Below are positions 3,949 to 47,281 of a stretch of DNA of 64,000 bases, one piece after another. How positions within the stretch are numbered: position 1 is the stretch's first letter; the number at the start of each line of letters is the position of its first letter. The position numbers and the translations under genes are program-made. The notes under the pieces are model-generated. The model was not told the origin of the DNA. It was given only the letters and a program-made list of their open reading frames with translations, and searched no databases. This DNA is from Gammaproteobacteria bacterium (GTDB taxonomy: Bacteria > Pseudomonadota > Gammaproteobacteria > CAJXQU01), in the NCBI GenBank assembly GCA_965238175.1, contig CBDEGZ010000003.1, forward strand, positions 1,920,001 through 1,984,000, read 5' to 3'.

Positions 3949-4106
3949 GATTATTTCCTATTGATTGGATTATTAAATATTACCGTGGAGCATATCTGAT
4001 ATGCATTTTTTATGGTAGTCACAATTTATCTTCATTTCTCTTTAAGAATTTACTAACTCGGCCGAAAACCTAGATGTGTATTTTTTAAAAATTCAACTGG
4101 TGAATT

Positions 4107-5147
4107 GTGAGATTTAACATCCTTGATTTAATTAGATTTATCGCGGCACTTTGTGTTGTGTTATATCACTATACTGCAGGTGAATTTTATACCTCCTATG
4201 GTTTCCTCACCGAAGTTACCAAGTTTGGTTACTTAGGAGTCCCTTTGTTTTTTATGCTGAGTGGTTTTGTTATCAGCGCTTCTGCACTTAATCGGACGCC
4301 AGCTGAGTTTGCAATCTCAAGACTCACTCGATTGTACCCGACTATTTTTGTTTGCTTGAGTATTACGACTGCAATAGTTCTACTATTTGGAAGTTCTGAG
4401 GATCAGCTTTCCGTTAAACAATTCATAAGTAATCTGACATTGTTGAACACATATGTTGGTGAGGAGTATATCGATGGTGTTTATTGGACCTTACTTGCTG
4501 AACTAAAATTTTACTGCTGTGTGTTTATATTATTAACGTTAGGTTTATTTGAAAAGTTTAAAATTTGGCTTAGTTGTTGGATGATAATGACTGTTATATT
4601 TTTGCTATATGGTCAGCCATTTTTTATGGGTTGGTTTATAAGCCCGGAATACTCTGCCTTTTTTATCGCCGGTGTTACTTTTTATCTTGCAGCGAAGAAT
4701 GGTTATAACAAGTTTTATATAAGTCTTTTAGCTTCATCGTTCATCGTCGGCAGTATTTTAGCGAATCAACAGGCTGAAGGATTTATGGAAAAATATGTCC
4801 CTGGTCAAATAGATCATCTTATTGTATTTGCATTTATTTGTTCTTTTTACATTCTGTTTTATCTGATTTCAAAAGATAGAATCCAGATTGGAAAGAGTCA
4901 GTTTTTATTAACGCTTGGAGGGATGACATATCCACTTTATCTACTCCATGGACGGATAGGAAATATAGCTTATAAGAATATGACAGGTTTTGATCCGCTA
5001 ATACTTCTAATTTTACTGATTGGATTAATGCTATTTTTGTCCTATCAAGTTCATACTCACATGGAAAAAAGAATCGCAAATTCGATCAAGAATTATCTTT
5101 TTGACAAGTTGCAGCTGTACAAGAGCGAAAGAAAGATAGTCAATTGA
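4107..5147 (+). CDS. Membrane acyltransferase (OafA/acyltransferase 3 family)
   Basis: LD.IRFIAA..VVLYH, GVPLFFMLSGF, R..RLYP, YWTL..E, YPLYLLH motifs; multiple hydrophobic segments. Confidence 0.88.
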   Translation: MRFNILDLIRFIAALCVVLYHYTAGEFYTSYGFLTEVTKFGYLGVPLFFMLSGFVISASALNRTPAEFAISRLTRLYPTIFVCLSITTAIVLLFGSSEDQLSVKQFISNLTLLNTYVGEEYIDGVYWTLLAELKFYCCVFILLTLGLFEKFKIWLSCWMIMTVIFLLYGQPFFMGWFISPEYSAFFIAGVTFYLAAKNGYNKFYISLLASSFIVGSILANQQAEGFMEKYVPGQIDHLIVFAFICSFYILFYLISKDRIQIGKSQFLLTLGGMTYPLYLLHGRIGNIAYKNMTGFDPLILLILLIGLMLFLSYQVHTHMEKRIANSIKNYLFDKLQLYKSERKIVN

Positions 5148-5217
5148 GTAAGGATGAACAAGATCTGATCAAAAATAGTTAATAGATTTAACCAGATCTT
5201 AATTTTTCAAAAAAAAC

Positions 5218-5388
5218 TTAAAGTGCTTCTGCACCGGCTTTAGCCATCTGCCCATCTTGAGATGACAGCACACCACTGATCCCAATAGCACCAACAATTT
5301 CACCATTACTTTTTATAGTGATCCCTCCTTCTATCGGCAACATTCCATCAAGTGATAAATAACCCTGACGACCATAATAGTTCATCAT
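5218..5388 (-). pseudogene. C-terminal remnant of a GlcG/HbpS heme-binding protein
   Basis: Hand translation MMNYYGRQGYLSLDGMLPIEGGITIKSNGEIVGAIGISGVLSSQDGQMAKAGAEAL (56 aa) matches the family's C-terminal GG..I...G..VGAIG.SG...D..A.AG pattern; N-terminal half missing. Confidence 0.7.
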
Positions 5389-5441
5389 GGTTGAGCTATC
5401 TCACGATTTATTTTTATACTTTGATAAACAATACCTTTAAC

Positions 5442-5984
5442 TTACCAATGTAAGTCATCTGGAATTTGAAAATCTGCGTAGGGATCACTTTCATCCTCAC
5501 CAGCGTCTTTTTTATCATTCAGAAGAATAAATACACGCGGATTCTTTTGAGCAACTTTTTCAGCGACTTCGGATGGAACGACACTATACTGATTTTTGAA
5601 TTTAACGATGGCTAGTCTTCCGTTACTGATTTTATCTCTAACAGAACTTGAAATGTATATGGTTTTAATCTTTTTCTGATCAGTAAAGTTAAATGATTCA
5701 CCCTCTTTCTCATCTGCAAGGCGATGAGTGTTGATCAATTGTTGAATTTGAGCGTTAACGGCTTGTTGATTAGCTTTCTCTTTTTGTTGCAGGTTGAGTT
5801 TTCTATCTTCTTCTTTCTTCTTTAACAAAGCCTTTTGCGCATTTATTTTATTTTGATCTTGAACGGGCTGTTTCGTATTGCGCTGTTGCTTATTATTTTT
5901 AGACTTTTCTTTTTGTAATTTCTGGGCTCGTTGTTTATCAACCAAACCCATTTTGAGCATTTGTTCTTGTAGTGATTTTGCCAT
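5442..5984 (-). CDS. DUF2058 (YaiL-like) protein
   Basis: Starts SLQEQ.LK.GL and ends DPYADFQIPDDL.W; start placed at the ATG at 5984. Confidence 0.85.
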   Translation of the reverse strand: MAKSLQEQMLKMGLVDKQRAQKLQKEKSKNNKQQRNTKQPVQDQNKINAQKALLKKKEEDRKLNLQQKEKANQQAVNAQIQQLINTHRLADEKEGESFNFTDQKKIKTIYISSSVRDKISNGRLAIVKFKNQYSVVPSEVAEKVAQKNPRVFILLNDKKDAGEDESDPYADFQIPDDLHW

Positions 5985-6179
5985 TTTTTTCAGTTCAACT
6001 ATATTTTGTTTAATTTTATAGTATCTGGTCAAAATAGAATACTTATTTTTGATTTCATCAGTATGAAATAATTATTGACTATCCTAACTAACTTATTCAG
6101 AAAATAAATTTTGGAATCAATATGTTACCGTTTAAGAAAATGATATTGTTTGTAGCAGTGGTCTTTCATTTAATATTAA

Positions 6180-6299
6180 TGTCCAATTGACGCAAAACAT
6201 AGTCCTAATCGTAAACCACTACTTGTGGTTACTAACGAAGTAAGTGGCACAACAGCAATTTACAAAATCAAAGTCCGATCAAAACATAAACATCATTAA
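6180..6299 (+). pseudogene. C-terminal remnant of a choice-of-anchor I / alkaline-phosphatase-associated protein
   Basis: Hand translation PIDAKHSPNRKPLLVVTNEVSGTTAIYKIK; SP..KPLL.V.NEVSGTT..Y is the family's typical C-terminus; in-frame TAA at 6177-6179 and no start codon. Confidence 0.6.
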
Positions 6300-6340
6300 T
6301 GGTTTAACGACCTTAAGAACTAATTTGATGCAAGTAAAAT

Positions 6341-6361
6341 CAGGGTAACTCGCTTACCCTG
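6341..6361 (+). terminator. Hairpin, possible terminator of the remnant gene
   Basis: CAGGGTAA-ctcgc-TTACCCTG 8-bp perfect stem; weak U tail. Confidence 0.4.
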
Positions 6362-6544
6362 GCTTGTATAATATTTTTAATTCACATTAATACCCTTAGT
6401 CTGGAGAGACCTCGTGAAATAATACCTGCTTTACATGAACGCTATTTCTTAACAAACTAAGCTAAAACAAAAACCATATTCATTTCTTAAATAGAAACGG
6501 AAGTTAGCTGGTTTGAAACTTCTGCCTCATAATAAGGATAAAGC

Positions 6545-8407
6545 TTGAGTAAACTTACCAGATCCTTCTATATTGCATTCATTGCTGCCTTGACGGGATG
6601 TCTTCTGCTGACGAGTACTTTAGGTGAGCGTCTGGAAGAAAACCTGGGTGAAATTTTTCTGTATAAGTTACGAGGAACTGTTTCGCCACCACCTGATGTG
6701 GCGATGGTTTATATTGATGGTAATACGGCTACTCAACTGGGTTTATCAGAAGAGTTAAAAAAATGGCCGCGTTCTGTTCATGCTTGTATTTTGAAGAAAC
6801 TTAAAGCCGCTGGTGCAAGTGTTGTTGTCTTTGACATTGCTTTCCTCGAGCCTGAAGTGACAATGACACACCCAGAGGAGATCTGTTCCGAAATACCTGC
6901 AGGAAACCATGCGGATGATGCCTTTGTTGATGCTGTTAAAGACTTTGGTAACGTTATACTTCTGGAAAAGCTGGAACAAGTGAACTATCGGACACCTGAT
7001 CAAACGCTTTCTACCTCTCAATCGATCAAACCGTTTGAAAAGTTAGCTGAAGCAGCCGTAGCCACAGGGCCATTTGTCTTGCCAGATGAAACATTGCGAC
7101 TTGCTACATTTTGGGCTTATCTTTGTGATCAACAATTGCTCAATAGAGTTGGTGGCTGTGCTAATAAAATAGCAACTCTTCCTATGTTAGCCCTACAGCA
7201 CTCTGAGGTTGAAAATAAACCAATAGATCTTCAACTTAATAAAAGTACTGACAGCATGAGGCTGAATTTTTATGGTCCGCCACGAACAATTCCTTGTCGT
7301 TCTTATCAGTCAATACTTGATCCAATGTTGCGAGATGAAGCGTGTGGCGATGTGGACTTTTCGGGGAAAGTGGTTTTTATTGGTATAGCAGAATACGATC
7401 GGCCTGCTCAGACTGATAGTTACTATACGGTTTTTTCAGGAAATGATGGTATTGATCTTGTCGGCGTTGAAGTGATGGCAACGGCATTTGCAAATCTTTT
7501 GACGGAGACCACGCTCAATAAACCCAACACAATTTATAGCCTGCTGATTATTGTTCTTGTGGCTATTATTCTAGGGATTCTTGTCTCTTTCTTTTCGTTA
7601 CTAACGGCTCTCGGTATTGGATCAGTCATTTTTATAACTTATCTGGCAATTGCTTATGTCGCTTTTACAAAATACTATCTGATACTGCCTGTCATGACTC
7701 CAATACTAATCCAGTCAACAGTAGCAATCATAATAGCCAGTTTCATACATTACCGTTATGAGAAAATTCGTCGAGAAGCGTTGCAACAGATCACCGGATA
7801 CTACATTTCAGAAAATGAGACTGATCAATCAACTTATGTATTGCCACCAACGGGACTAGTTTATGGTGTCTGTATGGCAACAGATATGGAGAATTCAACC
7901 GTACTTGTGGAAATGCTTGGGCCATCGAGATTTGCAGAGCTGATGGATTTATACTATTCCGAGTTGGCTTTAATAATAAAAAAACATGACGGCATATTAT
8001 TAGATATCGCCGGGGATGGAACAATGTCCGCCTGGCTCTTTAATAAAGAAGAATTTCCTAACGTTCAGACAAAAGCATGCAATGCTGCTTTAGAAATTAT
8101 CGCTGTGCAGGAACATTTGACAGTTAGTTTGAATAGTCCAATCCAAACACGGATCGGTTTGCATGCAGGGGAATTTACTTTGAATTTTGTCCGCATTGGC
8201 ATGCGTTACTTTTATAAAGGTACTGGCAATACGCTACATATCGCTTCACGAATTGAACAACTGAATAAAAAGTTGAACACAAAAATACTTCTGTCAGAGT
8301 CTATAGAAAAGAGCGTGGATAAAATCGCGCTGCAGCCTCATGGTTTATTTACGATTAAAGGGTTAAGCAAAAAAGTTAAAATATTTGAAATGTCAGAAAC
8401 AAAATAA
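6545..8407 (+). CDS. CHASE2-domain class III nucleotide (adenylate/guanylate) cyclase
   Basis: N-terminal TM, CHASE2 motifs (V.ID, WPRS.HA, V..FDI.F, GK.VFIG, GVEV.A), 3 TM helices, cyclase domain (TD...GD, RIGLHAG, ASRIE). Confidence 0.9.
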   Translation: MSKLTRSFYIAFIAALTGCLLLTSTLGERLEENLGEIFLYKLRGTVSPPPDVAMVYIDGNTATQLGLSEELKKWPRSVHACILKKLKAAGASVVVFDIAFLEPEVTMTHPEEICSEIPAGNHADDAFVDAVKDFGNVILLEKLEQVNYRTPDQTLSTSQSIKPFEKLAEAAVATGPFVLPDETLRLATFWAYLCDQQLLNRVGGCANKIATLPMLALQHSEVENKPIDLQLNKSTDSMRLNFYGPPRTIPCRSYQSILDPMLRDEACGDVDFSGKVVFIGIAEYDRPAQTDSYYTVFSGNDGIDLVGVEVMATAFANLLTETTLNKPNTIYSLLIIVLVAIILGILVSFFSLLTALGIGSVIFITYLAIAYVAFTKYYLILPVMTPILIQSTVAIIIASFIHYRYEKIRREALQQITGYYISENETDQSTYVLPPTGLVYGVCMATDMENSTVLVEMLGPSRFAELMDLYYSELALIIKKHDGILLDIAGDGTMSAWLFNKEEFPNVQTKACNAALEIIAVQEHLTVSLNSPIQTRIGLHAGEFTLNFVRIGMRYFYKGTGNTLHIASRIEQLNKKLNTKILLSESIEKSVDKIALQPHGLFTIKGLSKKVKIFEMSETK

Positions 8408-8589
8408 ATGTAAATCTATCTAATACCCTTAGGCAGCTTGCGTGAAAATAGGATACTATTTAAGGTTCCGGAGACACTCGTGAGAAACTGTAAAACAACG
8501 TTTTAATAATACTAACAATAAATACTCATTAGAAAGTGTACCGCTGTTATAAGCAAGTCTAAGGTAACCGGATAAATAAAGGGGATGGC

Positions 8590-11500
8590 ATGAAATGTAA
8601 ATATGGGTGGAGTGTTTCTACAATTCTGCTTGTTTTTTATTCGTGTATTTTCTCGCAAACAGTTGTTGCACAAACTAATTGCCCACGAGATCGAGCTCCC
8701 ATTGCCGAAGTTATATCTGTTCAAGGTATGCTTACACTAAATGGTGAGCAACTTTCAGTAAATGATCTGATCTGCCCAGGTCAAATAGTGCTTAATACCG
8801 AATCAAATAGTCGAGCTGCAATTCGCATTATAGCGACCGGCGTGAAAATCCGGCTTGATCAAAATACTGAACTACGTATGGATGCGTCGATTAGTTCAAC
8901 TTCAAGTAAAAATGCGGCAGACGATAACCAGAAATCATTTGTTGAACTTGTAACAGGTGCTATTAAAGCATTCACTCGCAAGCCTTATAAACTTGATGTA
9001 AGAACGCCTTACGTAACAGCGGGTGTAGAAGGGACAGAATTTATAGTTGAAGCTTTTGATGATGGCAGAGAAATTACCGTACATGTGTTTGAAGGGCATG
9101 TGCGTATGCTCTATGCATATAATGACCAACGTGCCGATCTGGATATTTTGGCTAATGAAGCCGGTTATGCAAGAAAAAATCAACCACCAGAGAAAGTTGA
9201 AAAACTCAAAATAAAGTCACGCGATCAAGTTGACTGGGCACTCTACTATCCAGCATTTTCAGGAATGCCAGCTCTAAATAAGGTAAATCAGCTACTGGCT
9301 GCAGGGCGGGTTGATGCAGCTAAAAAGCATCTCGATGCTTCTAACCTGCAAGATCAGAAATTAATATTGGATACAATAGTCAAAATTTCCAAAGGAAAAA
9401 GTCATCAAATAATCAATCAAGCCTCCTGGGTTAAAAAATTAGAAGCCACGTCTATAACACGACTGCTGCTTTCTTATGCCTACCAGGCAGATTTGCAACT
9501 GAACAAAGCGCTTGAAACACTGGAGAACACTAAAATCAAGGACGCGCTGATCTGGGCAAGAATAGCCGAACTGCGTCTTGCTAAAGGGGAGATAGAAGGA
9601 TCTGTTGATGCCGCACAACAAACTCCCATTAATTTTCAATTAAACAATTGCCTTTCTGAGGCTATCAGCAACCCGCCCAATTATATTGCTAGAACGCTCA
9701 CGGTCAGAGGTTTTACGAAACTTGCGCAAAGAGATGTGGAAAATGCAAAGGTGGAATTTGAATGCGCTATCCTGTTTGCCTCAGAGGATCCACTGCCCAG
9801 ATTTGGGCTTGGTTTAGCAAAGATCCGACAAGGACACACGCAACAAGGACGACATGATATTGAAACGGCGGCCTTACTTGATCCGACCAATGCACTTATT
9901 CGTAGTTATTTAGGCAAGGCATTTTTTGAAGAGAATAGGGGAATGCGTAATACCACATCAACAGATGAATGTGCCCAACAAACAGGGAATGATGCTGATC
10001 TGGCCGATCAACAATTGTGTATCGCTAAACAATTAGATCCCAACGATCCAACGCCGTGGTTCTATCATGCAATAAAAAAACAAACTGAAAATAAACCGGT
10101 GGAAGCCTTAAAAGATCTGCAAAAAGCCATCGACAAAAATCACAATCGAGCCGTTTATCGATCGGGATTTTTATTGGACAGCGATCTGGCTTCGCGCAGC
10201 GCCAGTCAGGGTCGGATCTACCGTGACTTAAAATTTGAACAGCTTGGACTGTTGCAAGGCTGGAAATCTGTTAATACCGATCATGGTGATTATTCGGGCC
10301 ACCGATTACTTGCAGATACCTATTCTGCATTACCGCGCCACGAAACTGCCCGTGTCAATGAACTCTACCAATCGCAATTATTACAGCCGCTAAATGTAAC
10401 GCCAGTGCAGTCGCAGCTAGCCGAAAAAAACCTGTCTATCTTGAATAATTCTGGTCCTTCAGAAGTATCATTTAACGAATTTAATCCTTTATTTACCCAA
10501 AATGGTTTGTCCATGCAGAGTTCCGCTGTGGTCGGTGGCAATAGTACTTGGGGTGAGGATATTACTATCGCTGGTCTGTATGACAACTGGTCAATTAACC
10601 TGGGCCAATTTCATTTTGAAACCGCTGGGTTTCATGACAATAATGGGTTGGAAAAAGATGTGTTAAGTGCAACGCTGCAATACAGCCCAGATCAAAACAC
10701 CTCGTTTTTAGCGGAACTAAGAACGAGCGAAAGGGAACAGGGCGATCTAGCGCTTTTATTTGATAGCAATAATTTTAGATCTAATGCCGCTCTAAAAGAA
10801 CAAATTCATTTACTTAAGACAGGTTTCCATCATCAATTTTCACCTCAATCTGAAATTATTGGTTCATTTATTTATCAAGTTGCAAAGATAAACGTACGGG
10901 ATGAACCTTTTTTTGAACTTGATGCGGATCTTGGCGGATACACTACTGAGTTACAGCATCTATACCAGGGGCAACACGGGCGTTTGACCAGCGGTGTTAG
11001 ATATTCTCATCGTGATCAGAAAGAGTCGGTGCAACTGTCTTTTTCGCTGCCTGTTCCTCCATTCAATGTTCAAAGTGATTTTACTAGAAAACATATCATT
11101 GAGCAGGCCAGTCTATACTTATATTCATATACTGATCTAAGTAAGAACGTAAGTATCACACTCGGTGGCAGCTTTGATTCTCTTAATGGACGCGCTACAA
11201 ACAAGGATTTATTCAATCCAAAGCTCGGATTAATTTGGGAACCCATATCAAGCACAACGTTTCGCGCTGCCGTATTCAAAACCTTGCAAGGGCCAGCCTT
11301 TTCACGCCAAGATCTCCAACCCTCTATAGAACCAACGCAAGTAGCCGGTTTTAATCAGTTCTTTTTTGATGACGTTGAAGGTGATGTTAATTGGCGATAT
11401 GCGATTGCCCTGGATCATGAGTTTTCCCCAAACTTATATTCAGGGTTAGAGCTTTCAAAAAGAACACGCGATAGACCTTTTCTCACATTAGGTGTCTCTG

Positions 11501-11961
11501 AACAACTTGAAACCATTGATTGGAAAGAATATTCTGCACGATTTTATACCTATTGGACTCCAGCTTCTGGTCTGACTTTAACTGCAACCTACCAATTTGA
11601 TAAAAGGGATAATGGAGATAATGGTTTAAATGAAGCTGCTTTGGAAATGCAAATTCATCGACTCCCACTGAAACTTAATTATTTTCATCCGAACGGTATT
11701 AGTAGTGGGATAACCGCAAGCTATGTTTATGAAAAAGGTATCTTTCAAGATGCAAATGCAAACACATTTTCTAGGGGTAAGGATAGCTTTTGGGTGGTAG
11801 ATGCGGCCTTAAGCTATCGACTGCCGAAACGTTATGGAATTATTTCATTGAGTGTCGATAATCTATTCGACCAGAAATTTCAGTTTCAGGATATTGATCC
11901 GGAAAATATAGAGCTAAAACCAGAGAGAATGAGCTTAATTAAATTTACACTTTCTTTCTAA
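8590..11961 (+). CDS. FecR-domain + TPR + beta-barrel outer-membrane receptor (NsrA-like)
   Basis: Signal peptide; FecR-like LDVRTP..TAGVEGTEF; TPR-like helices (A..LDP.N...RSYLGKA, LDPNDPTPWFY); TonB-receptor-like barrel ending in Phe. Confidence 0.82.
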   Translation: MKCKYGWSVSTILLVFYSCIFSQTVVAQTNCPRDRAPIAEVISVQGMLTLNGEQLSVNDLICPGQIVLNTESNSRAAIRIIATGVKIRLDQNTELRMDASISSTSSKNAADDNQKSFVELVTGAIKAFTRKPYKLDVRTPYVTAGVEGTEFIVEAFDDGREITVHVFEGHVRMLYAYNDQRADLDILANEAGYARKNQPPEKVEKLKIKSRDQVDWALYYPAFSGMPALNKVNQLLAAGRVDAAKKHLDASNLQDQKLILDTIVKISKGKSHQIINQASWVKKLEATSITRLLLSYAYQADLQLNKALETLENTKIKDALIWARIAELRLAKGEIEGSVDAAQQTPINFQLNNCLSEAISNPPNYIARTLTVRGFTKLAQRDVENAKVEFECAILFASEDPLPRFGLGLAKIRQGHTQQGRHDIETAALLDPTNALIRSYLGKAFFEENRGMRNTTSTDECAQQTGNDADLADQQLCIAKQLDPNDPTPWFYHAIKKQTENKPVEALKDLQKAIDKNHNRAVYRSGFLLDSDLASRSASQGRIYRDLKFEQLGLLQGWKSVNTDHGDYSGHRLLADTYSALPRHETARVNELYQSQLLQPLNVTPVQSQLAEKNLSILNNSGPSEVSFNEFNPLFTQNGLSMQSSAVVGGNSTWGEDITIAGLYDNWSINLGQFHFETAGFHDNNGLEKDVLSATLQYSPDQNTSFLAELRTSEREQGDLALLFDSNNFRSNAALKEQIHLLKTGFHHQFSPQSEIIGSFIYQVAKINVRDEPFFELDADLGGYTTELQHLYQGQHGRLTSGVRYSHRDQKESVQLSFSLPVPPFNVQSDFTRKHIIEQASLYLYSYTDLSKNVSITLGGSFDSLNGRATNKDLFNPKLGLIWEPISSTTFRAAVFKTLQGPAFSRQDLQPSIEPTQVAGFNQFFFDDVEGDVNWRYAIALDHEFSPNLYSGLELSKRTRDRPFLTLGVSEQLETIDWKEYSARFYTYWTPASGLTLTATYQFDKRDNGDNGLNEAALEMQIHRLPLKLNYFHPNGISSGITASYVYEKGIFQDANANTFSRGKDSFWVVDAALSYRLPKRYGIISLSVDNLFDQKFQFQDIDPENIELKPERMSLIKFTLSF

Positions 11962-12026
11962 ATTTAACGCTGATCGTAGCAAAACCAGTCTTACCCATCA
12001 GTTTTTTTAAACTAAATTGCACACAT

Positions 12027-12042
12027 TGTGTTTTTTCTCACA
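12027..12042. promoter_or_regulatory. CRP-type binding site upstream of small secreted protein
   Basis: TGTGT-N6-TCACA (9/10 to TGTGA-N6-TCACA); TAGTAT -10-like hexamer at 12064-12069, class II spacing. Confidence 0.75.
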
Positions 12043-12142
12043 TCTTTATTTTCATCAATCCTTTAGTATTTATTGGTGAGCCAGTTAATCGTTGCTCATC
12101 CCGATAAAAATCAATTTATTAAAATATAAAGGGGATAAACCT

Positions 12143-12388
12143 ATGTTAAATCGTAAACTTTTAGTATCAATCATCAGTTTTTCAGTTTTCTCACTCTGTA
12201 GTGTTATGCAAACTGCGTATGCATCTGCTGCTGATAGTTATAGTATTAATGACAATATAAATGTGGAGTTTGTGGAAAACCTCACGTCATCAGGGAGGCT
12301 GCAAAGTATGCAAGGAGATGTTATTTCTCACGGTAGACATTGCTACTTTATTATCTTCGGAAATGAGCTGTTTGTGTATCACTGTTGA
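12143..12388 (+). CDS. Small secreted protein (81 aa) with C-terminal Cys-x13-Cys loop
   Basis: RBS AAAGGGGA before the ATG at 12143; Sec signal ending AYA; ends CYFIIFGNELFVYHC. Confidence 0.7.
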   Translation: MLNRKLLVSIISFSVFSLCSVMQTAYASAADSYSINDNINVEFVENLTSSGRLQSMQGDVISHGRHCYFIIFGNELFVYHC

Positions 12389-12517
12389 TCTTTAGAATTT
12401 ACAGTGAGTGTTCGAATGTGCATATATAAATATTAATTAAATAGCTAGTAAGTATGCTTTTTACCAAAGAGTTAAGCTTTATCATTTACTGTGTGGTGTC
12501 AGGCTTACTCAGTTCAT

Positions 12518-12558
12518 AGCAGATAACCAGCATCACTTTTGGTTATCTGCTTGTTTTT
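12518..12558 (+). terminator. Rho-independent terminator
   Basis: AGCAGATAACCA / TGGTTATCTGCT 12-bp stem followed by TGTTTTTT. Confidence 0.8.
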
Positions 12559-12618
12559 TAAAAATCTTACTGGATAATCATTCACTATTTTTAGTGTAAT
12601 CAAGGAAGGATTTCTGTT

Positions 12619-13332
12619 TTGGATGACTTCAATTTCATTCCTGTTACTGCGGATTTATTATTAGGTATAGATTTGTTCCGAGATCTGCCCGCAGGTGATC
12701 GAAGTCTAATTGCACAGCATTGTGTCGGTAAGGAATATGCTGCACACAAATTAGTTTTAACCCAAAAAGATTTGTCCGGAGATGTTTATTTCGTTATCAG
12801 CGGAAGAGTGCGTGTTACTTATTTCTCTATATCGGGTAAAGAAGTTACTTTTCGTGAACAAAATGCGGGTGAGATGTTTGGTGAATTGTCGGCAATTGAT
12901 GCTAAACCACGTTCCACACAGGTAATAACAGGTTCAGATGCTATTCTTGCCTCAATGAGTTCTACTGATTTTCAGGCGCTGCTACAGGAGAATTCCAAAC
13001 TTGCCTGCAAAGTTATGCAGCATTTAACCAGCCTTGTTAGATTATTGTCAGAACGCATTGTCGAATTCTCAGCACTTGCTGTTAAAAATCGGATCCATGC
13101 GGAGTTATTGTGGATCGCCTTAAAAGGGAAGGTCGTCGATGGTCGTGTGATCATAAAACCGGTACCAACGCATGCAGATATATCAACCCGTATCAGTTCG
13201 CACCGTGAAGCCGTTACTCGTGAATTGAAAAGGCTTGAACAGAAGGGTCTGCTTGAGCGGCATCATGACAAATGGATTATCTTAGATCTTGAACGATTAC
13301 AAACTATGGTTCTGGATGTTTTGGGTGTTTAA
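12619..13332 (+). CDS. Crp/Fnr-family cNMP-binding transcriptional regulator
   Basis: cNMP pocket GEMFGELS....PRST; HTH THADI......REAVTREL. Confidence 0.93.
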   Translation: MDDFNFIPVTADLLLGIDLFRDLPAGDRSLIAQHCVGKEYAAHKLVLTQKDLSGDVYFVISGRVRVTYFSISGKEVTFREQNAGEMFGELSAIDAKPRSTQVITGSDAILASMSSTDFQALLQENSKLACKVMQHLTSLVRLLSERIVEFSALAVKNRIHAELLWIALKGKVVDGRVIIKPVPTHADISTRISSHREAVTRELKRLEQKGLLERHHDKWIILDLERLQTMVLDVLGV

Positions 13333-13425
13333 TTTATAAAGCCCCCAATAAAAATCAGCATTAATTGCTTTAAACAACTGTTTTACTTAATTCTTCTAAT
13401 ATTATTACAACTATTTTCCTCGAAT

Positions 13426-13441
13426 TGTGAGAAAAACCACA
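13426..13441. promoter_or_regulatory. CRP-type binding site upstream of subtilase
   Basis: TGTGA-GAAAAA-CCACA; 15/16 identical to the reverse complement of the 12027 site. Confidence 0.75.
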
Positions 13442-13519
13442 GCACAAATTCCTGGATCAGGTTTTAATTAGTCGTGTTAGAAAGAAACGTTATCTATTAA
13501 ACGACATGAGGAAAATCAA

Positions 13520-14629
13520 ATGAGTTTAAAGTCATTAAATAGAACAAAAACCAAACCTATTTTTACTCTACCGCCCTATAAAGTTGAACAAATTATTTCA
13601 TCTACTTCAGAAATAATAGATTGGGGTCTTGAAATGCTTTCGGTACCTGATAGTTGGAGAGATGCTCAAGGTGCAGGCGTTAAAGTTGCTGTTTTAGATA
13701 CAGGTGCGGATTTATACCATCCGGATTTAAGAAGTAGCGTTGTAAAAGCTGAAGATTTTACGAATAGCGCTGTCGGTGCGCAGGATATTGATGGGCATGG
13801 TACTCATGTGGCAGGAACCATAGCAGCTAAAAAGAATCGGCACGGTGTCGTTGGTGTTGCTCCAGAGGCCGAACTTCTTATCGCAAAGGTGTTAGGTGAT
13901 TTTGGATACGGGACAGAAGAGGCCGTTGCAAACGGCATAAACTGGGCGATAGAAAATGATGCAGATATTATTTCTATGAGTTTGGCCAGTAGCCTATATA
14001 GCAAAAAAGTTCATGCTGCAGTCAAAGCAGCATACAAAGTTAACAAGACAATTATATGTACTGCCAGTAACGAAGGTTCAAAACTGGAAACAATGACCTA
14101 TCCGGGAAAATTTGAAGAAACCATTGCCGTAGGTACCATTGATAGTTCTAAAAAGGTTTCCGGTTATTCAAAGCGAGAATCACAGGTAGACATCGTCGCG
14201 CCAGGTGATCAAGTTCTTTCAACCTATCCAACAGGGGGTTATGCTGAACTAAGCGGTTCCTCTATGACAACACCTCTTGTGTCAGGCATTATCGCTTTAA
14301 TGTTTTCTAAATTTCGACGATTTAGTGGGGCGAATCCTCTAGAAGATCGAGAAGAACTTATTCGGCATTTACGAGAAACAGCTACAAACTTAGGTCCGGA
14401 CAGATTTGATCCTGGTTACGGTTATGGATTAATCAACCCTGAAGATTTGCTCTCTGCGCAATCAAGATTCCTTTTGAATTTAATACCTTCAGATGATCTA
14501 ACAAAGTCAGGTAAGAAGAAACTTAGTAAATTTATGAACAGAGGAAAAACAAAGCCATCTGTCAATAATTCTGCACACCTACAAGATGGGTATGGAGAAA
14601 TAAGAGGTGGTGTCAGGATAAAGATATAA
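13520..14629 (+). CDS. S8 subtilisin-family serine protease, intracellular (ISP) type
   Basis: VAVLDTG, HGTHVAG, SGSSM.TP triad; no signal peptide; N-terminal LPPY motif. Confidence 0.9.
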   Translation: MSLKSLNRTKTKPIFTLPPYKVEQIISSTSEIIDWGLEMLSVPDSWRDAQGAGVKVAVLDTGADLYHPDLRSSVVKAEDFTNSAVGAQDIDGHGTHVAGTIAAKKNRHGVVGVAPEAELLIAKVLGDFGYGTEEAVANGINWAIENDADIISMSLASSLYSKKVHAAVKAAYKVNKTIICTASNEGSKLETMTYPGKFEETIAVGTIDSSKKVSGYSKRESQVDIVAPGDQVLSTYPTGGYAELSGSSMTTPLVSGIIALMFSKFRRFSGANPLEDREELIRHLRETATNLGPDRFDPGYGYGLINPEDLLSAQSRFLLNLIPSDDLTKSGKKKLSKFMNRGKTKPSVNNSAHLQDGYGEIRGGVRIKI

Positions 14630-14652
14630 CCAACCTGCGCTTGATGTATGGG

Positions 14653-14684
14653 CTCCACGACTACTACCGAGAAGTAGCGTGGAG
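14653..14684. terminator. Hairpin between convergent genes
   Basis: CTCCACG(A)CTACT-accgaga-AGTAGCGTGGAG stem with a one-base bulge. Confidence 0.45.
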
Positions 14685-14804
14685 TGACCAAGCTAAAGAT
14701 CATAAATAAGCGTAATGTGCTATATCTTTAGATCTTGCAAAACGTGTTATTCAAATAAGTAAAGTTAGTCCTGCTTTTTAAGCTCAGGCTCTAATGAAAT
14801 AGAT

Positions 14805-16355
14805 CTACTTGCTCTGAACAGCCCAGTTAAGATCAGATAATGTATTTACAGTTGATCCTCCAGCCTCTAATAGAATAGGGCCGCTCATAAGGTACATATG
14901 ATTTTGGCCAGTCACATTATTTCGCCAGAATATATCCTGTTTCCCATCGCCATTGTAATCACCAATAGCCCGAATATCCCAGGCTAGTGAGGTGAACTCA
15001 ACGTGTTGGCCAGGTGCACCTGCTGTGCTATTTGAAATATTGGGGCCATTCATAAGATACAACCAAACCCGACCATTAGTGCTATGCCTCCATAGAATAT
15101 CGCCTTTACCATCAGCATCAAAATCACCAACGCCTTGTATATTCCAGTTCTCACTGGTGAATGCGACATGCTCACCTGTGCCTGATCCATTAATGATATT
15201 ATTGCCATTCATCGAATAAAGCCACACACGTCGATTGACGTTATTGCGCCAGAGGACATCGTCTCTTCCATCGTTATTGAAATCTGCAATACCGGAAACT
15301 ACCCAATTTTTATCAGGAATGGTATTTACCTGGAGAGTTACATTCAGGTTAGTGCCGTTCAAAAAACTAATCCGGTTCTCACCATCATCGTGATGCCAAA
15401 AAATATCGTTATTTCCGTCGCCGTTAAAATCTCCTGTCCCAGCGATTTTCCATTTGGTGTCGGTAAAAGGAGGGATGGTCAGATCAATTCCTCTTATTAC
15501 GTTTACGCCGTTCATAATAGTTATCTGGTTTGAGCCATTATTGGTGTTTCGCCAGAGAAGGTCAGAGCTGCCATCTTTGTCGAAATCACTGTTTCCAACT
15601 ACTACCCAAGTGGATTCAGCAGAAAACAGGCTTACATCTGCACTTGATGCGACAACACTACTATTCATCAAATAAATCCTGTTATTGTTCGTAATAACAT
15701 TACGCCAGAAAATATCGGACTTTCCATCATTATTAAAATCATTTTTGTCTGCGAGATTGTTTATTCTTGGGGCATTGAGTTCAGGGTAGAGTACTTTAAT
15801 ACCTAGAAGATCATCGTTTTGGATACTTCGGATTTCATCGTTGTAAAATGACTGTAAGATAGAGTTCGTAGTATCTTCGTGATCCAAACCTAGAGTATGG
15901 CCTAGCTCATGTAATGCCACTCTGTAAAAATCTGTGGTTCCATTTGATGATGCTCCATCGAAAACACCCCATTGAACACTGGAATTATTAAAAACAATAT
16001 CTGTTTCTACTATTGAGCCATTTGACGAAAGCAATCCGGTAATGGCCAATGTACCGCGACCCCAATTTGCACCACAATAAGTGTTGGAAAACCCAACACC
16101 GTTTCTATTGTCGTCAGAACATGGGTTTTGATAAGTATTAATTGTTTGTAAATTAAAGCCAGCAGTATTATTCCAATTCGCCATCGCAGACTGGAAAGAA
16201 GAAGAAAACTGGCCGATATCTACATAGAATACGATATTAGTTGTAGCCCATTTAGCCGGTGGGCTAAAGATAAACGAATAAGCAAAAAGCGAGGAGTTAT
16301 ACGTAAGCATCAGTATGGTAATGAAAATGTTTTTTTTGATATTCATCACTACCAA
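14805..16355 (-). CDS. Secreted matrixin-like zinc metalloprotease with FG-GAP/VCBS repeats
   Basis: Signal peptide; HELGHTLGLDH; six D[FY]..DG..D repeats; start may be the ATG at 16346. Confidence 0.88.
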   Translation of the reverse strand: MVVMNIKKNIFITILMLTYNSSLFAYSFIFSPPAKWATTNIVFYVDIGQFSSSFQSAMANWNNTAGFNLQTINTYQNPCSDDNRNGVGFSNTYCGANWGRGTLAITGLLSSNGSIVETDIVFNNSSVQWGVFDGASSNGTTDFYRVALHELGHTLGLDHEDTTNSILQSFYNDEIRSIQNDDLLGIKVLYPELNAPRINNLADKNDFNNDGKSDIFWRNVITNNNRIYLMNSSVVASSADVSLFSAESTWVVVGNSDFDKDGSSDLLWRNTNNGSNQITIMNGVNVIRGIDLTIPPFTDTKWKIAGTGDFNGDGNNDIFWHHDDGENRISFLNGTNLNVTLQVNTIPDKNWVVSGIADFNNDGRDDVLWRNNVNRRVWLYSMNGNNIINGSGTGEHVAFTSENWNIQGVGDFDADGKGDILWRHSTNGRVWLYLMNGPNISNSTAGAPGQHVEFTSLAWDIRAIGDYNGDGKQDIFWRNNVTGQNHMYLMSGPILLEAGGSTVNTLSDLNWAVQSK

Positions 16356-16996
16356 CCTATTTCTTTAAGTTTTTGCTTGAACTCGCCTGGTGTCATGCCG
16401 TTTGGAGTAGCGTTATCTGTGGATGTCGGATTTGATGCAAGACTAGCGGCTTTAATAGTTCTAAGTCCAGCGGCGGTACCATCACTTATTAAGTCTTTAT
16501 TCGGTATATTAGATTCAACACTCTCTACTTGCTTGCCTTCCGCTGTATTGACTCGTTCTACCCCCTTTTGATCGGTTTTAATAATATAGTGACCTTGTGT
16601 CCAACCAAACAAGGGATTAATCAAATATTCATTCAGAGACTCTACGAAATAGATCCCCTTTTCACCGGGAGCTGGATATTTCATGTCGGGTATGTGAACC
16701 TTTTTACCATTATATTCGCCACCGACGAATCGTAGCTCTATTGTGTTACCTTGATCAGTACCTTTAACCACGTCATTTATCTGAAAGGTGATGTCTGTAA
16801 CAATCCAGTGGTTGTTAGCATCCATCCCCGTTTCGACGGCGATCACTTCACCTTCAAACACAAACTCTGCTTCGCTTAGAAGTTCGTTAACGTTGAATGA
16901 GCGAACAGTAGTAGCCTTTGAAGTACTAGCAAATAAGAGTGTGCACAGTAAAAAGAATAATTTTAAAAGTTTTGCTGGAGTTGTGATTTTGATCAT
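16349..16996 (-). CDS. Secreted hypothetical protein, probable OB/TIMP-like fold, partner of the matrixin
   Basis: Signal peptide (ASTSKA); L...A..VFEG.V.....V..V.KG pattern; stop codon abuts the matrixin start. Confidence 0.65.
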   Translation of the reverse strand: MIKITTPAKLLKLFFLLCTLLFASTSKATTVRSFNVNELLSEAEFVFEGEVIAVETGMDANNHWIVTDITFQINDVVKGTDQGNTIELRFVGGEYNGKKVHIPDMKYPAPGEKGIYFVESLNEYLINPLFGWTQGHYIIKTDQKGVERVNTAEGKQVESVESNIPNKDLISDGTAAGLRTIKAASLASNPTSTDNATPNGMTPGEFKQKLKEIGW

Positions 16997-17239
16997 ATCA
17001 ATTATTTCAATGCCCTTTTAATAATGAATCCATGCTTATGACTGCATGAATTATAATACATTTCCAGGGGACACGGGTATAGAATGTTTAAAACCTTGTC
17101 CCATATTAATAATTTAGGACTCGGGTTTCTTATAAAAGTTTTATGTGGTTTTGATAAATACATCATAAATCAGGTGAAATTCAATTTGAGACATAAGGGC
17201 ATGAGCAATTAATTTCATGATTTTAAAAGAGGATGTTTA

Positions 17240-18040
17240 TTGGTGAAAAAAGAGATAAGTATTCTAGGAGGTGGTTGGCTTGGGTTTCCACTTGCGGAAC
17301 ACTTTTTATCACAAGGACACAAGGTGAAAGTATCAACGAGAACAGAGGTTCATCTTGCAGATCTTAAATCCAACAATCTTGAACCTTACTTGATTGATAT
17401 AGCTCGTCTTGATACCCAAGTACAAAAGAATAAGCTTCAGGAATTTTTAAATGCAGAGATTTTAATTATAAATATTACATCAAAAAATCCTGATGATTTT
17501 CGAAGCTTGTTGGATGAAGTTGATCAATCAAAGATTGAAAATATTTTGTTTGTTAGTTCGACCTCCGTCTATGAAAATAATAACAAAGTTATAACTGAGG
17601 ATAGTAGTTTCGAGTCTGATAAAAGCCCTTTATTTGAGATCGAAAACCTAATAAAAAGTAATCAAAAGATCGAGTTCACAATAGTTAGATTTGGTGGCTT
17701 GATTGGTTACAGTCGAAAACCAGGTAATTTTTTTCGCAAAAGGGATCTTGTTGATTTTCCTGAGTCACCAATCAATTTGATCCATAGAGATGATTGTATA
17801 AATATTATCAGTCGAATTGTTGAACAAAATGTTTGGGGAGACGTTTTTAATTGTTGTGCTGACACGCATCCAACGAAAAAAGAATTTTATACCAAAGCAA
17901 CACAAACTATAGGACAAGCTGTCCCAAATTTTGTAATTGCAGAGTTTAACGAATTTAAGATCATTGATAATACAAAGGTGAAGCGAATTTTAAATTATGA
18001 ATTTATATATCCAGACTTAATGGAAATAGATCTTTCATAA
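17240..18040 (+). CDS. NAD(P)-dependent epimerase/dehydratase (YeeZ-like)
   Basis: ILGGGWLG Rossmann motif, SSTSVY, N.IHRDD. Confidence 0.85.
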   Translation: MVKKEISILGGGWLGFPLAEHFLSQGHKVKVSTRTEVHLADLKSNNLEPYLIDIARLDTQVQKNKLQEFLNAEILIINITSKNPDDFRSLLDEVDQSKIENILFVSSTSVYENNNKVITEDSSFESDKSPLFEIENLIKSNQKIEFTIVRFGGLIGYSRKPGNFFRKRDLVDFPESPINLIHRDDCINIISRIVEQNVWGDVFNCCADTHPTKKEFYTKATQTIGQAVPNFVIAEFNEFKIIDNTKVKRILNYEFIYPDLMEIDLS

Positions 18041-45331: not shown

Positions 45332-47281
45332 ATGAAAACCCCATCAGAAGTACTCAGTAAAACAGGGCCTGTCGCAAACAGTATTGAAGGCTTTTCTCCT
45401 CGGTTGCAACAACAAGAAATGGCTGATCAGATCGGTGAAGTCTTAGCACAAAATGGCATTTTGATCGGTGAAGCAGGCACGGGCACGGGTAAGACCTTCG
45501 CTTATTTGGTACCTGCTCTTATGTCCGGTAAGAAAGTCATAATTTCAACCGGAACAAAACACCTTCAAGATCAACTTTATCATCGGGATCTTCCAGTCAT
45601 CAGAGATGCGTTGAAATTACCGATCAGTATTGCATTATTAAAAGGTCGCGCTAATTATCTGTGTCTGAACCGCCTGGGAGAAGCCGGTGGTCAAGGCAAC
45701 CCAATGACTTCCAAACTTTATGTGCAACTGACGAGCATCAAGGAGTGGGCAGAAAAAACCACCGTTGGGGATGTGTCAGAATTAAGTTCTGTACCTGAAG
45801 ACTCGATGATTTGGCCGATGGTTACCTCAAACGCCGATAATTGTCTTGGCCAAGAATGTCCGCAATTTAGCGATTGTCATGTCTATAAAGCACGCAAAGA
45901 GGCTAATGATGCTGATGTTTTAGTTGTCAACCATCATCTATTCATGGCAGATATGTCGTTACGTGAAGGTGGTTTTGGTGAAGTTCTACCCGGCGCTGAA
46001 GCTGTGATTTTTGACGAAGCGCATCAGTTGCACGATATTGCCTCTCAATTTTTTGGAAGCAGTGTAACCAGCCGACAGTTATTGGATCTCTCGAGAGATG
46101 TATTTGTTGCTTATCTACGAGAAGCATCGGATATGCCAGACATTGAGGACGCAGGAAATGATCTAGAAAAACTGGCAAAAGACTTTCGTTTAGCCCTGGG
46201 ACGAGCGAAGCAAAGGGCCCCCTGGCATGAGATAAAAAACAAACCGGATGTAAAACTTGGTTTAAATGACTTGATCGAGGGTTTGCAGATCTTAAGAGAC
46301 TGCCTGAAGCCGGCGGCAGAAAGAGGGCGGGCTATCGAAAATTGCTTAATACGAACGGAATCTTTACTTGGACGATTAAGATTATTTTCTGATCAGCAGC
46401 AGGCAGAAAAGACGAGTGATACGGATCAGCCAGGTTCAGAAGATACGATCCAATGGTTCGAAACCTATCAACGTGCTTTTGTTTTAAACATTACGCCACT
46501 AGAGATCTCGAGCGTTTTTCAAGCACGTCGGCAAAGTTATCAGTGTGCCTGGGTTTTCACTTCTGCAACTTTGGCTGTGGGAGAAAATTTTAAGTATTTC
46601 ACTCACCGGCTTGGTTTGGATGATGCCGTGACCAAGCTTTGGGACAGTCCTTTTGATTATCCTAACCAGGCCCTATTGTATCTCCCTAAACTGGGTGTAG
46701 AGCCTAATCATCCATCGTATACACAAGCCGTTGTCAATTTCTCAATTCCTGTTTTACAGGCGAGTCAGGGCAGGGCATTTGTGCTTTTCACTAGCCATCG
46801 GGCATTAAAAGAAGCTGCAGAATTATTTGCCGATAAGCTCGATTTTACTTTGCTAATTCAGGGTGAAGCTCCTAAAGCGGAGTTGCTCGAACGTTTCAGG
46901 AATACGCCTTCAGCTGTGCTGTTAGGCACAAGCAGTTTTTGGGAAGGCGTTGATGTTCGTGGTGAAGCCTTATCTTGTGTGATTATCGACAAGTTACCTT
47001 TCGCTTCAATGGGTGAACCGGTAATGCAAGCACGACTGGATGCAATGCGTAAACAAGGCAAAAATCCATTTATGGAATACCAATTGCCTGAAGCGGTAAT
47101 TACGCTTAAACAAGGTGTGGGACGTTTGATCCGGGATGTGAATGATTCGGGTGTGTTGATGATTTGTGATCCACGGATAGCAACTAAATCCTATGGTAAA
47201 ACTTTCTTGTCTTCATTACCTGCGATGCGTAGGGTGAATGATCAATCAGAGGTGGATTATTTTTTTAAAAGTAATAAATGA
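45332..47281 (+). CDS. yoaA: DinG/XPD-family ATP-dependent DNA helicase
   Basis: EAGTGTGKT, Fe-S Cys residues, DEAH, FWEGVDV, QGVGRLIR. Confidence 0.9.
   Translation: MKTPSEVLSKTGPVANSIEGFSPRLQQQEMADQIGEVLAQNGILIGEAGTGTGKTFAYLVPALMSGKKVIISTGTKHLQDQLYHRDLPVIRDALKLPISIALLKGRANYLCLNRLGEAGGQGNPMTSKLYVQLTSIKEWAEKTTVGDVSELSSVPEDSMIWPMVTSNADNCLGQECPQFSDCHVYKARKEANDADVLVVNHHLFMADMSLREGGFGEVLPGAEAVIFDEAHQLHDIASQFFGSSVTSRQLLDLSRDVFVAYLREASDMPDIEDAGNDLEKLAKDFRLALGRAKQRAPWHEIKNKPDVKLGLNDLIEGLQILRDCLKPAAERGRAIENCLIRTESLLGRLRLFSDQQQAEKTSDTDQPGSEDTIQWFETYQRAFVLNITPLEISSVFQARRQSYQCAWVFTSATLAVGENFKYFTHRLGLDDAVTKLWDSPFDYPNQALLYLPKLGVEPNHPSYTQAVVNFSIPVLQASQGRAFVLFTSHRALKEAAELFADKLDFTLLIQGEAPKAELLERFRNTPSAVLLGTSSFWEGVDVRGEALSCVIIDKLPFASMGEPVMQARLDAMRKQGKNPFMEYQLPEAVITLKQGVGRLIRDVNDSGVLMICDPRIATKSYGKTFLSSLPAMRRVNDQSEVDYFFKSNK

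Follow-up and report, generated by a model that had tools for sequence, protein, structure and literature searches.

A cluster of five genes in the 64-kb window analysed here (positions 1,920,001–1,984,000 of contig CBDEGZ010000003.1 of a Gammaproteobacteria bacterium; coordinates below are those of the window) encodes a CHASE2 cyclase, a receptor combining FecR, TPR and barrel parts, a small peptide with a predicted export signal, a Crp/Clr-like regulator and an S8 protease (Table 1). We read this locus, with a probability of about 0.6, as a trans-envelope signalling module of the NsrA/CyaK/Clr type equipped with a small local regulon.

According to this reading, a surface or periplasmic cue would change the receptor, whose FecR/TPR arm would act on the CHASE2 domain, and the cyclase would then make a cyclic nucleotide, perhaps other than cyclic AMP (cAMP). 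The nucleotide-bound Crp would sit at about −41.5 at both promoters and would activate the genes for the exported peptide and for an auto-inhibited intracellular subtilisin. The peptide itself would be the local form of a small protein that follows the receptor in related loci, acting in the periplasm as an accessory to the receptor-cyclase complex or as its modulator. The peptide gene being under Crp control, such an accessory would close a feedback loop; this part of the reading is tentative, and we lean somewhat towards doubting it.

CHASE2 is a very common bacterial sensor domain, and the sole studied pathway from the outer membrane to a cyclase is known from rhizobial symbiosis only. The ligands of CHASE2 domains are described as unknown (PMC5192318). 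The window offers an unusually clean test bed, with one cyclase, one receptor, one regulator, two short promoters bearing near-identical boxes and a soluble candidate partner peptide. In related loci the module often includes a previously unremarked third gene, encoding a small protein with a Cys hairpin, and canonical boxes frequently link the module to a Crp of its own. This side finding, the Cys-hairpin class together with the Crp-box wiring, possibly carries more weight than the window locus itself.

Table 1. Coordinates of the genes and regulatory features of the locus
Feature	Position	Strand	Remarks
CHASE2 cyclase gene	6545–8407	+	620 aa; Pfam CHASE2 3.2e-26, Guanylate_cyc 6.7e-10
FecR-TPR-barrel receptor gene	8590–11961	+	1123 aa; Pfam FecR 3e-15, TonB_dep_Rec_b-barrel 3.4e-14
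CRP-type box 1, TGTGT-N6-TCACA	12027–12042	.	108 bp before peptide ATG
Exported-peptide gene	12143–12388	+	81 aa from ATG; 98 aa from upstream TTG; without Pfam family
Intrinsic terminator after peptide gene	12518–12560	+	13-bp stem, then T run
Crp/Clr-like regulator gene	12619–13332	+	237 aa; Pfam cNMP_binding 2.6e-17, HTH_Crp_2 1.7e-11
CRP-type box 2, TGTGA-N6-CCACA	13426–13441	.	86 bp before protease ATG
S8 protease gene	13520–14629	+	369 aa; Pfam Peptidase_S8 9.9e-54

The five co-oriented genes of the original prediction were all recovered as open reading frames (ORFs) at the positions it had given. The cassette is bounded, because the flanking genes, a DUF2058 gene (5442–6032) and an M10/FG-GAP protease gene (14805–16355), lie on the other strand. 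NCBIfam added nothing specific for the five proteins, and no RNA family of Rfam was found in the 64-kb window.

Receptor, cyclase and regulator

The receptor comprises a signal peptide (residues 1–27), a FecR beta domain (39–203), a TPR-like helical region (227–621) and a 22-strand barrel (639–1122). Its AlphaFold2 model reached a predicted local distance difference test score (pLDDT) of 84.8 and a predicted template modelling score of 0.85, and the best PDB matches of the barrel in Foldseek were the TonB-dependent transporters PqqU, FpvA, FecA and BtuB (E about 1e-16); TPR matches in Pfam were below the cut-offs. The model describes an NsrA-type outer-membrane protein, in which a periplasmic FecR domain and TPR arm are mounted on a plug-less 22-strand barrel. 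The 22-strand fold and the use of a FecR domain for signalling across the periplasm are shared with FecA/FecR/FecI and with TonB-dependent transporters. Unlike these systems, the window receptor has its FecR domain fused to the barrel protein and gave no Pfam match to the plug domain (PF07715), which a true TonB receptor nearby in one related locus (L058) does match; no ECF (extracytoplasmic function) sigma factor was found by Pfam among the ORFs at 4000–18000, and there is no separate anti-sigma protein. Among 8000 candidates scored, 2868 proteins were related to the receptor at E ≤ 1e-5, most of them with about 40% identity along their whole length; identity rose to 72% (P0002), 54% (P0003) and 51% (L001) in the nearest ones. 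The receptor, the peptide and the S8 protease of the window are singletons in the protein collection searched.

The conservation of the locus was followed in the neighbourhoods of receptor relatives. With one genome scanned per species, 592 relatives were confirmed. The best 80 were retained and correspond to 79 loci, each taken with at most 10 kb of flank; the ORFs in these loci were called by us and searched with the window proteins. A cyclase homologue is present in 59 of the 79 loci. Among the 65 loci with at least 2.6 kb of upstream sequence, 47 have a co-oriented cyclase gene whose end is no more than 700 bp away from the receptor gene, and three more adjacent cyclases were hidden by overlapping maximal ORF calls. 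A full-length Crp (E < 1e-15) is encoded in 21 of the 79 loci (16 of the 48 with full flanks), either divergently upstream of the cyclase gene (10 genes) or on the same strand downstream of the receptor gene (12 genes). Where the crp gene lies downstream, the order cyclase, receptor, small gene, Crp, which is also the order in the window, occurs in 10 of 11 loci, and the small gene of these 10 loci encodes 83–160 aa and starts 7–43 bp after the receptor gene. These gene neighbourhoods show that the NsrA-type module has a broad distribution, which covers free-living nitrifiers and sulfate reducers as well as Nitrospirota and Gammaproteobacteria. One receptor fragment (L018; 41% identity) lies on a 2.3-kb contig binned as a Hadesarchaea archaeon, and this archaeal assignment is most likely a binning error.

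Sinorhizobium meliloti relays a proteinaceous signal from plants through NsrA, the cyclases CyaK/CyaD1/CyaD2 and Clr (PMC7529298, PMC13001267). The nsrA gene of pSymB encodes a protein of 1197 aa with FecR, TPR and barrel parts and precedes cyaK, the stop and start codons overlapping. The window receptor was aligned with NsrA by BLASTP in three collinear stretches, corresponding to the FecR domain (29% identity over 170 aa, E 3e-6), the TPR region and the barrel (25% over 248 aa, E 6e-6); a tblastn search with the window receptor against plasmids gave no match at 1e-5, and NsrA was reached through the cyclase instead. The likeness to this cascade, proposed in the original prediction, is borne out by the shared receptor architecture, the collinear BLASTP matches, the neighbouring cyclase gene and the position of Clr as the bacterial structure nearest to the window Crp. 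In both organisms, a FecR, TPR and barrel protein adjoins a class III cyclase with a CHASE2 domain, there is a regulator of the Crp family, and a small exported protein without assigned function is encoded behind a palindromic box; in S. meliloti, Clr binds TGTT-N8-AACA upstream of smc02178, which codes for such a periplasmic protein (PMC5498481).

The two systems are only distant relatives and also differ in several respects. The receptor gene precedes the cyclase gene on pSymB, whereas the order is reversed in the window; the Clr box is TGTT-N8-AACA, whereas the window boxes are of the TGTGA-N6-TCACA type; CyaK has the adenine-specifying Lys, which is missing from the window cyclase and its 56 relatives; T140 of Clr is replaced by Leu in the window Crp; and an intracellular subtilisin is added to the window regulon. 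The suggestion that a compact locus carrying its own outputs would be new has to be given up, as the genes clr, cyaD1, smc02177 (with a FecR domain) and smc02178 of S. meliloti lie side by side and already include a local target (PMC5498481). This kind of system was thus known before, including the form of a compact locus that contains a target gene of its own.

Two further systems couple FecR-domain proteins to CHASE2 sensors. In Campylobacterota, genes for a CHASE2 cyclase, an outer-membrane FecR protein, a TPR protein and a phosphodiesterase form clusters, which the authors read as one pathway spread by horizontal transfer (PMC9239204). These clusters differ from the window in the separate TPR protein and in the phosphodiesterase, for which Pfam and NCBIfam family searches gave no counterpart at the window locus, and the available part of that account describes no Crp boxes, small partner gene or protease. 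The 'BiofilmReg' operon of Burkholderia combines a LysM-FecR protein with a CHASE2 histidine kinase (PMC5192318) and shares with the window the genetic coupling of a periplasmic FecR-domain protein to a CHASE2 sensor. Its output consists of a histidine kinase and response regulator instead of a cyclase and Crp, and the FecR protein carries LysM and no barrel.

The window cyclase, an inner-membrane protein, is composed of a periplasmic CHASE2 domain (about residues 28–328), membrane helices and a catalytic domain (about 440–615, within positions 7805–8404) that retains both metal-binding Asp residues and the catalytic Arg. At the position of the adenine-specifying Lys, which is present in S. 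meliloti CyaK and in the Pseudomonas aeruginosa CyaB chain, the window cyclase has Asp, and none of the 56 locus cyclases has Lys (D 36, N 9, E 8, G 2, H 1). The second specificity position is K in the window cyclase and R in 42 of the 56 relatives. The catalytic Asn is replaced by His in the window cyclase and, among the 56 relatives, in that of L001 only.

After one eukaryotic protein, the nearest solved relative of the window Crp is Clr (7pza, E 2.1e-14); E. coli CRP was matched at about 1e-12. The protein retains the G-E...R-S phosphate cassette and an R-E-x-V-x-R recognition helix, the R-E...R residues of which are those that read TGTGA in CRP, as judged by alignment with an E. coli-type CRP chain. 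It is 37–41% identical to 11 of the 12 Crps encoded downstream of the receptor (Nitrosomonas-type; the twelfth is 34% identical) and 22–30% identical to the divergently encoded ones. Its recognition-helix motif is found unchanged in five Nitrosomonas-type Crps, the loci of which carry the same type of box. Leu at position 127 of CAP alters the response to cyclic GMP (cGMP), which serves here only as a lead. In the window Crp and in 20 of 23 locus Crps, Leu replaces the residue corresponding to T127 of CAP and T140 of Clr, which contacts the base (PMC10127613). Since the cyclase is without the adenine-specifying Lys and the Crp without the base-contacting Thr, cAMP is an unsafe assumption and the messenger may be another nucleotide; the locus thereby raises the checkable question of which nucleotide is made by receptor-linked CHASE2 cyclases.

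CRP-type boxes and the protease gene

The matching CRP boxes that had been predicted in front of the peptide and protease genes are present, and the two are identical at 15 of 16 positions when compared as reverse complements. The pattern TGTG-N8-CACA occurs at three sites in the 64 kb, where 0.80 would be expected (a count of three was reached in 5 of 100 shuffles); two of these sites are the locus boxes, and the third, at 46915, lies within a helicase gene. The joint pattern of boxes 1 and 2, with up to two mismatches, has no other match in the window (expected 0.20; 1 of 100 shuffles reaches two).

In both promoters, the centre of the box is placed 29.5 bp upstream of a putative −10 hexamer picked by eye (TAGTAT at 12064–12069 for box 1 and TTTAAT at 13463–13468 for box 2). 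A distance of −41.5 is the textbook class II position of CRP. The spacing places the box centres near −41.5, and we therefore read both boxes as probable class II sites of their promoters. The peptide gene forms a transcription unit of its own, because an intrinsic terminator follows it.

The regions upstream of the cyclase gene (6370–6430) and the receptor gene (8403–8485) have TAATACCCTTAG in common and, further along, GGAGAnACnTCGTGA, which ends in a CRP-like half-site; in the copy at the receptor gene, an inserted stretch of about 35 bp separates the blocks. These blocks may represent a common promoter or operator of the two genes.

Over the 1.41 Mb of related loci, TGTG-N8-CACA was counted at 50 sites, 36 of which are outside gene calls. 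Such a box lies 100–260 bp upstream of the receptor start in 24 of 73 loci, all of which belong to the Nitrosomonas/Burkholderiales-type clade except L021, its nearest branch. Downstream sequence was sufficient in 22 of these receptor-box loci, and in 20 of them a gene for 60 aa or more begins no farther than 40 bp from the receptor stop, so that the receptor and its small partner stand jointly behind the box. The window and L001 have the box directly before the small gene. A search for other 5+6+5 palindromes before the small genes of the non-Nitrosomonas loci found nothing consistent.

The second target of the proposed regulon, the S8 protease, is most similar in the PDB to intracellular serine proteases (ISPs; 7xr8, E 3.5e-58, as well as 7y6m, 6f9m and 2x8j), with alignments starting at residue 16. 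It has no hydrophobic N-terminus or signal peptide, as read from its sequence, and is predicted to be an intracellular subtilisin-type protease. The pro-peptide motif of ISPs (LIPY/F) is [LVI]-[IFLV]-P-[YFH] (PMC6220982); L-P-P-Y at residues 17–20 of the window protein fits three of its four positions and aligns with the motif of 7xr8. The enzyme thus resembles the ISPs of Bacillus and Planococcus in its best PDB matches, in the lack of a signal peptide and in an N-terminal pro-peptide over the LIPY/F region; it differs in an extra basic C-terminal tail of about 60 aa, in its gammaproteobacterial setting and in the CRP-type box upstream. Relatives are frequent, 3716 of the 8000 candidates scored having E ≤ 1e-20 and the nearest being 55% identical, and those with a named source come from cyanobacteria, Bacteroidota, Planctomycetota and Desulfobacterales. 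The original prediction had expected the protease to accompany the core elsewhere, and it does not: an S8 gene was found in one of the 79 loci, 7 kb away on the opposite strand, encoding an unrelated kind of enzyme, i.e. a secreted multi-domain protein with a fervidolysin-type pro-domain and Ig-like domains. The window protease would thus be a generic enzyme recruited by the box, lineage-specific and outside the core module.

The exported peptide and the slot behind the receptor

The 81-aa ORF has the appearance of a real gene, because it has an AGGGGA site 7 nt upstream of the ATG, an export leader, a terminator and a conserved relative. The leader, as read from the sequence, consists of a basic N-terminus and a hydrophobic stretch ending in an A-Y-A cleavage site at residue 27, and the peptide is predicted to be exported via this Sec-type signal and to have no anchor. 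Two Cys residues bracket the last two of three predicted strands (32–36, 39–45 and 49–53 of the mature form); the pLDDT of the fold model (51.9) is too low for use, and the placement of strands between the Cys residues is not evidence. The peptide has no family in Pfam or NCBIfam. A word-indexed search of 5.8 billion proteins retrieved only the peptides of the window and L001 (two of two candidates), HMMER against 1.84 billion representatives added one 605-aa protein matching the hydrophobic leader alone, and the best score in the ESM Atlas (0.83) was below the usable level. By these searches the peptide is an orphan, whose only relatives found sit in the same slot of L001.

L001 belongs to a metagenome-assembled genome of Gammaproteobacteria and is, by its receptor, the closest of the 79 loci, which do not include those of P0002 and P0003. 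Downstream of its receptor gene, an 82-aa ORF noticed by eye has a Sec-type leader and the same ending as the window peptide (27–30% identity), and a second, frameshifted copy follows. Each copy stands behind TGTGAGTTTTCTCACA with conserved flanks, the −10-like hexamer being one base farther from the box than in the window. A phmmer search with the window peptide found nothing in the 79 loci, and a hidden Markov model (HMM) of the mature peptide matched only the L001 ORFs among 781 downstream ORFs. The original prediction that the peptide co-occurs with the core elsewhere therefore stands in part: the peptide recurs, together with its box, in L001, and this is the sole case among the 79 loci. 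In the second L001 copy (14149–14455 of that locus), which has its own perfect box, the frameshift falls between the N- and C-terminal halves; the first copy has a GC-rich inverted-repeat insertion in its leader region, at about 13490–13570.

Clustering of the ORFs downstream of receptors revealed small genes starting just past the receptor stop in many loci. Many of their products end in C-x4-7-[G/N]-x3-7-C near the C-terminus, preceded by a strand-like stretch, often with N-P. With the class defined by C-x4-7-[GN]-x3-7-C-x0-5-end and adjacency as a start no more than 30 bp ahead of or 150 bp past the receptor stop, the pattern was found in 25 of 82 adjacent ORFs (25 of 68 loci) versus 134 of the 9399 ORFs used as controls (odds ratio 30, p 2e-25). 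The 25 seeds, which match by construction, served to build a profile that gave 26 matches at E < 0.01 among 10,137 ORFs, 25 of them adjacent to the receptor, one within 1 kb downstream and none elsewhere, so that the new matches are likewise confined to the post-receptor slot. The matches occur in both major clades of the receptor tree and start between 25 bp before and 137 bp after the receptor stop, with one second copy at 633 bp.

The ATG of the window peptide lies 181 bp after the receptor stop on the same strand, in the directly following gene, and the C-terminal Cys-hairpin pattern is present in both the window and the L001 peptide. In the receptor tree, the window and L001 form a pair (support 1.0) that is sister to L002 (0.945), and L002 has a profile-positive Cys-hairpin gene in the same slot. 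We therefore treat the window peptide as the positional equivalent of the Cys-hairpin class and as no more than a possible homologue.

Several other genes were observed around this slot. In three Nitrosomonas/Burkholderiales loci (L017, L020 and L022), two receptor genes lie a few kb apart like paired cassettes, each preceded by a separate box and followed by a small gene that differs between the two. A family of cytoplasmic proteins of about 250 aa without Pfam match (26 members in 18 loci, among them L011, L017, L024, L025, L032, L034, L037, L039, L051, L054, L058, L059, L063, L066, L071 and L072) is encoded on the opposite strand just past the small gene, often in tandem and in some loci with a TGTG-N8-CACA box upstream; it has no counterpart in the window. 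In Nitrospirota (L012, L013 and L045), a 110-aa Cys-rich ORF without export signal is located about 460–510 bp after the receptor stop, following a 71-aa hairpin gene.

Readings of the local regulon and neighbouring genes

Several observations weigh against a self-contained signalling module with the peptide as its accessory. Every functional step, i.e. binding, transcription and catalysis, is read from sequence. The replacement of the catalytic Asn by His may lower the activity of the cyclase. The −10 hexamers are absent from a consensus promoter scan, which requires a −35 hexamer, and a relaxed scan of the window for CRP-like sites showed no enrichment (34 found versus 35.5 expected). The boxes are of the canonical CRP type, so the global CRP could be the actual binder. 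L001, despite having the peptide and the boxes, encodes no Crp and no S8 protease within 10 kb. The receptor tree puts the window outside the Nitrosomonas-type clade, though its Crp resembles the Crps of that clade most, and because receptor phylogeny and Crp similarity disagree, the history of the module may be mosaic. As regards the peptide, the Cys-hairpin pattern matches 1.4% of ORFs by chance (13 of the 959 window frames), the class HMM left the window peptide unscored and gave its L001 relative an E value of 610, hhalign of the window peptide against the class returned a probability of 0.3%, and any export signal is missing from 8 of the 26 class members, which does not fit a purely periplasmic role.

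The profile and hhalign results also suit an alternative in which the peptide and the protease are plain outputs without feedback on sensing, the peptide being an effector, for example directed at the surface, at a host or at neighbours, or antimicrobial. An orphan with two or three known copies and rapid divergence would be in keeping with such a role, as would the finding that the Clr targets smc02177, smc02178 and smb20495 are dispensable for signal perception in S. meliloti (PMC5498481). Against this alternative stands the small gene held by the post-receptor slot in both major clades, often at a distance of 7–43 bp that suggests co-translation with the receptor, and no immunity or export genes are found near the peptide gene. 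We consider it rather unlikely.

An exported peptide whose gene has a Crp box could instead be the receptor's own ligand, in an autoinduction or contact-sensing loop running through a cyclic nucleotide. Its level would rise with the activity of the pathway, it has a predicted cleavable Sec-type signal and no anchor, it evolves fast and is duplicated in L001, and the receptor of S. meliloti does respond to a proteinaceous signal (PMC7529298). That signal, however, is a basic protein, proposed to meet acidic loops of the barrel (PMC7529298), whereas the predicted mature peptide of the window (54 aa) is acidic, with six D/E versus two R; moreover, no outer-membrane exporter or processing gene is found at the locus. 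The slot equivalents carry a lipobox, a signal peptide or a membrane anchor in 18 of 26 cases, and the lipoproteins and anchored forms among them could not diffuse. As the slot proteins are mostly anchored or exported, a receptor accessory is favoured over a diffusible autoinducer, which we regard as improbable.

The remaining alternative, that the global CRP serves both boxes according to carbon status while the local Crp acts elsewhere, and that the proximity of boxes and module is coincidental, has comparably little probability. TGTGA-N6-TCACA is the canonical CRP site, the organism is gammaproteobacterial by its housekeeping genes, and the divergently encoded Crps keep the R-E...R helix, yet their loci have few or no boxes; against this, the box type recurs outside gene calls, before receptor genes and before both L001 peptide copies, the resemblance between the two window boxes exceeds what the consensus demands, and the window has no wider scatter of such sites.

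A bolder extension of the NsrA/CyaK/Clr-type reading, which we rate as a long shot, would make NsrA-type receptors three-part sensors, in which a hypervariable small protein, encoded immediately behind the receptor and with a disulfide-stapled beta-hairpin at its end, docks on the receptor or on CHASE2 and sets what is sensed or how strongly, the messenger being cGMP or another cyclic nucleotide and not cAMP. In the window, this partner would have been freed as a soluble exported peptide under the control of the Crp of the pathway, giving a self-tuning or self-recognising loop, with peptide autoinduction as its boldest form.

A defence function, of the Pycsar type or another, was considered and rejected. 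The PADLOC matches are weak and at the level of domains, i.e. PycC with 33 bits to the cyclase fold and PycTIR with 49.5 bits (E 8.9e-14) to the cNMP (cyclic nucleotide) domain alone, and the cNMP-binding protein here is a DNA-binding regulator, whereas Pycsar pairs a cytosolic pyrimidine cyclase with an effector in which the cNMP-binding domain is joined to a TM or TIR killing domain. On S. meliloti pSymB, the gene divergent from nsrA (3498–4043 of L080) matches the PycTM Pfam domain (9.4e-12), which places a second kind of cyclic-nucleotide-linked protein near the known pathway.

Convergent with the S8 protease gene, the minus strand of the window carries a two-gene unit (14805–16996). It encodes a 215-aa exported protein without family and a 516-aa exported metalloprotease of the M10 matrixin type with six FG-GAP repeats. 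A CRP-like site with one mismatch (16982–16997) overlaps the start codon of the first gene of this unit.

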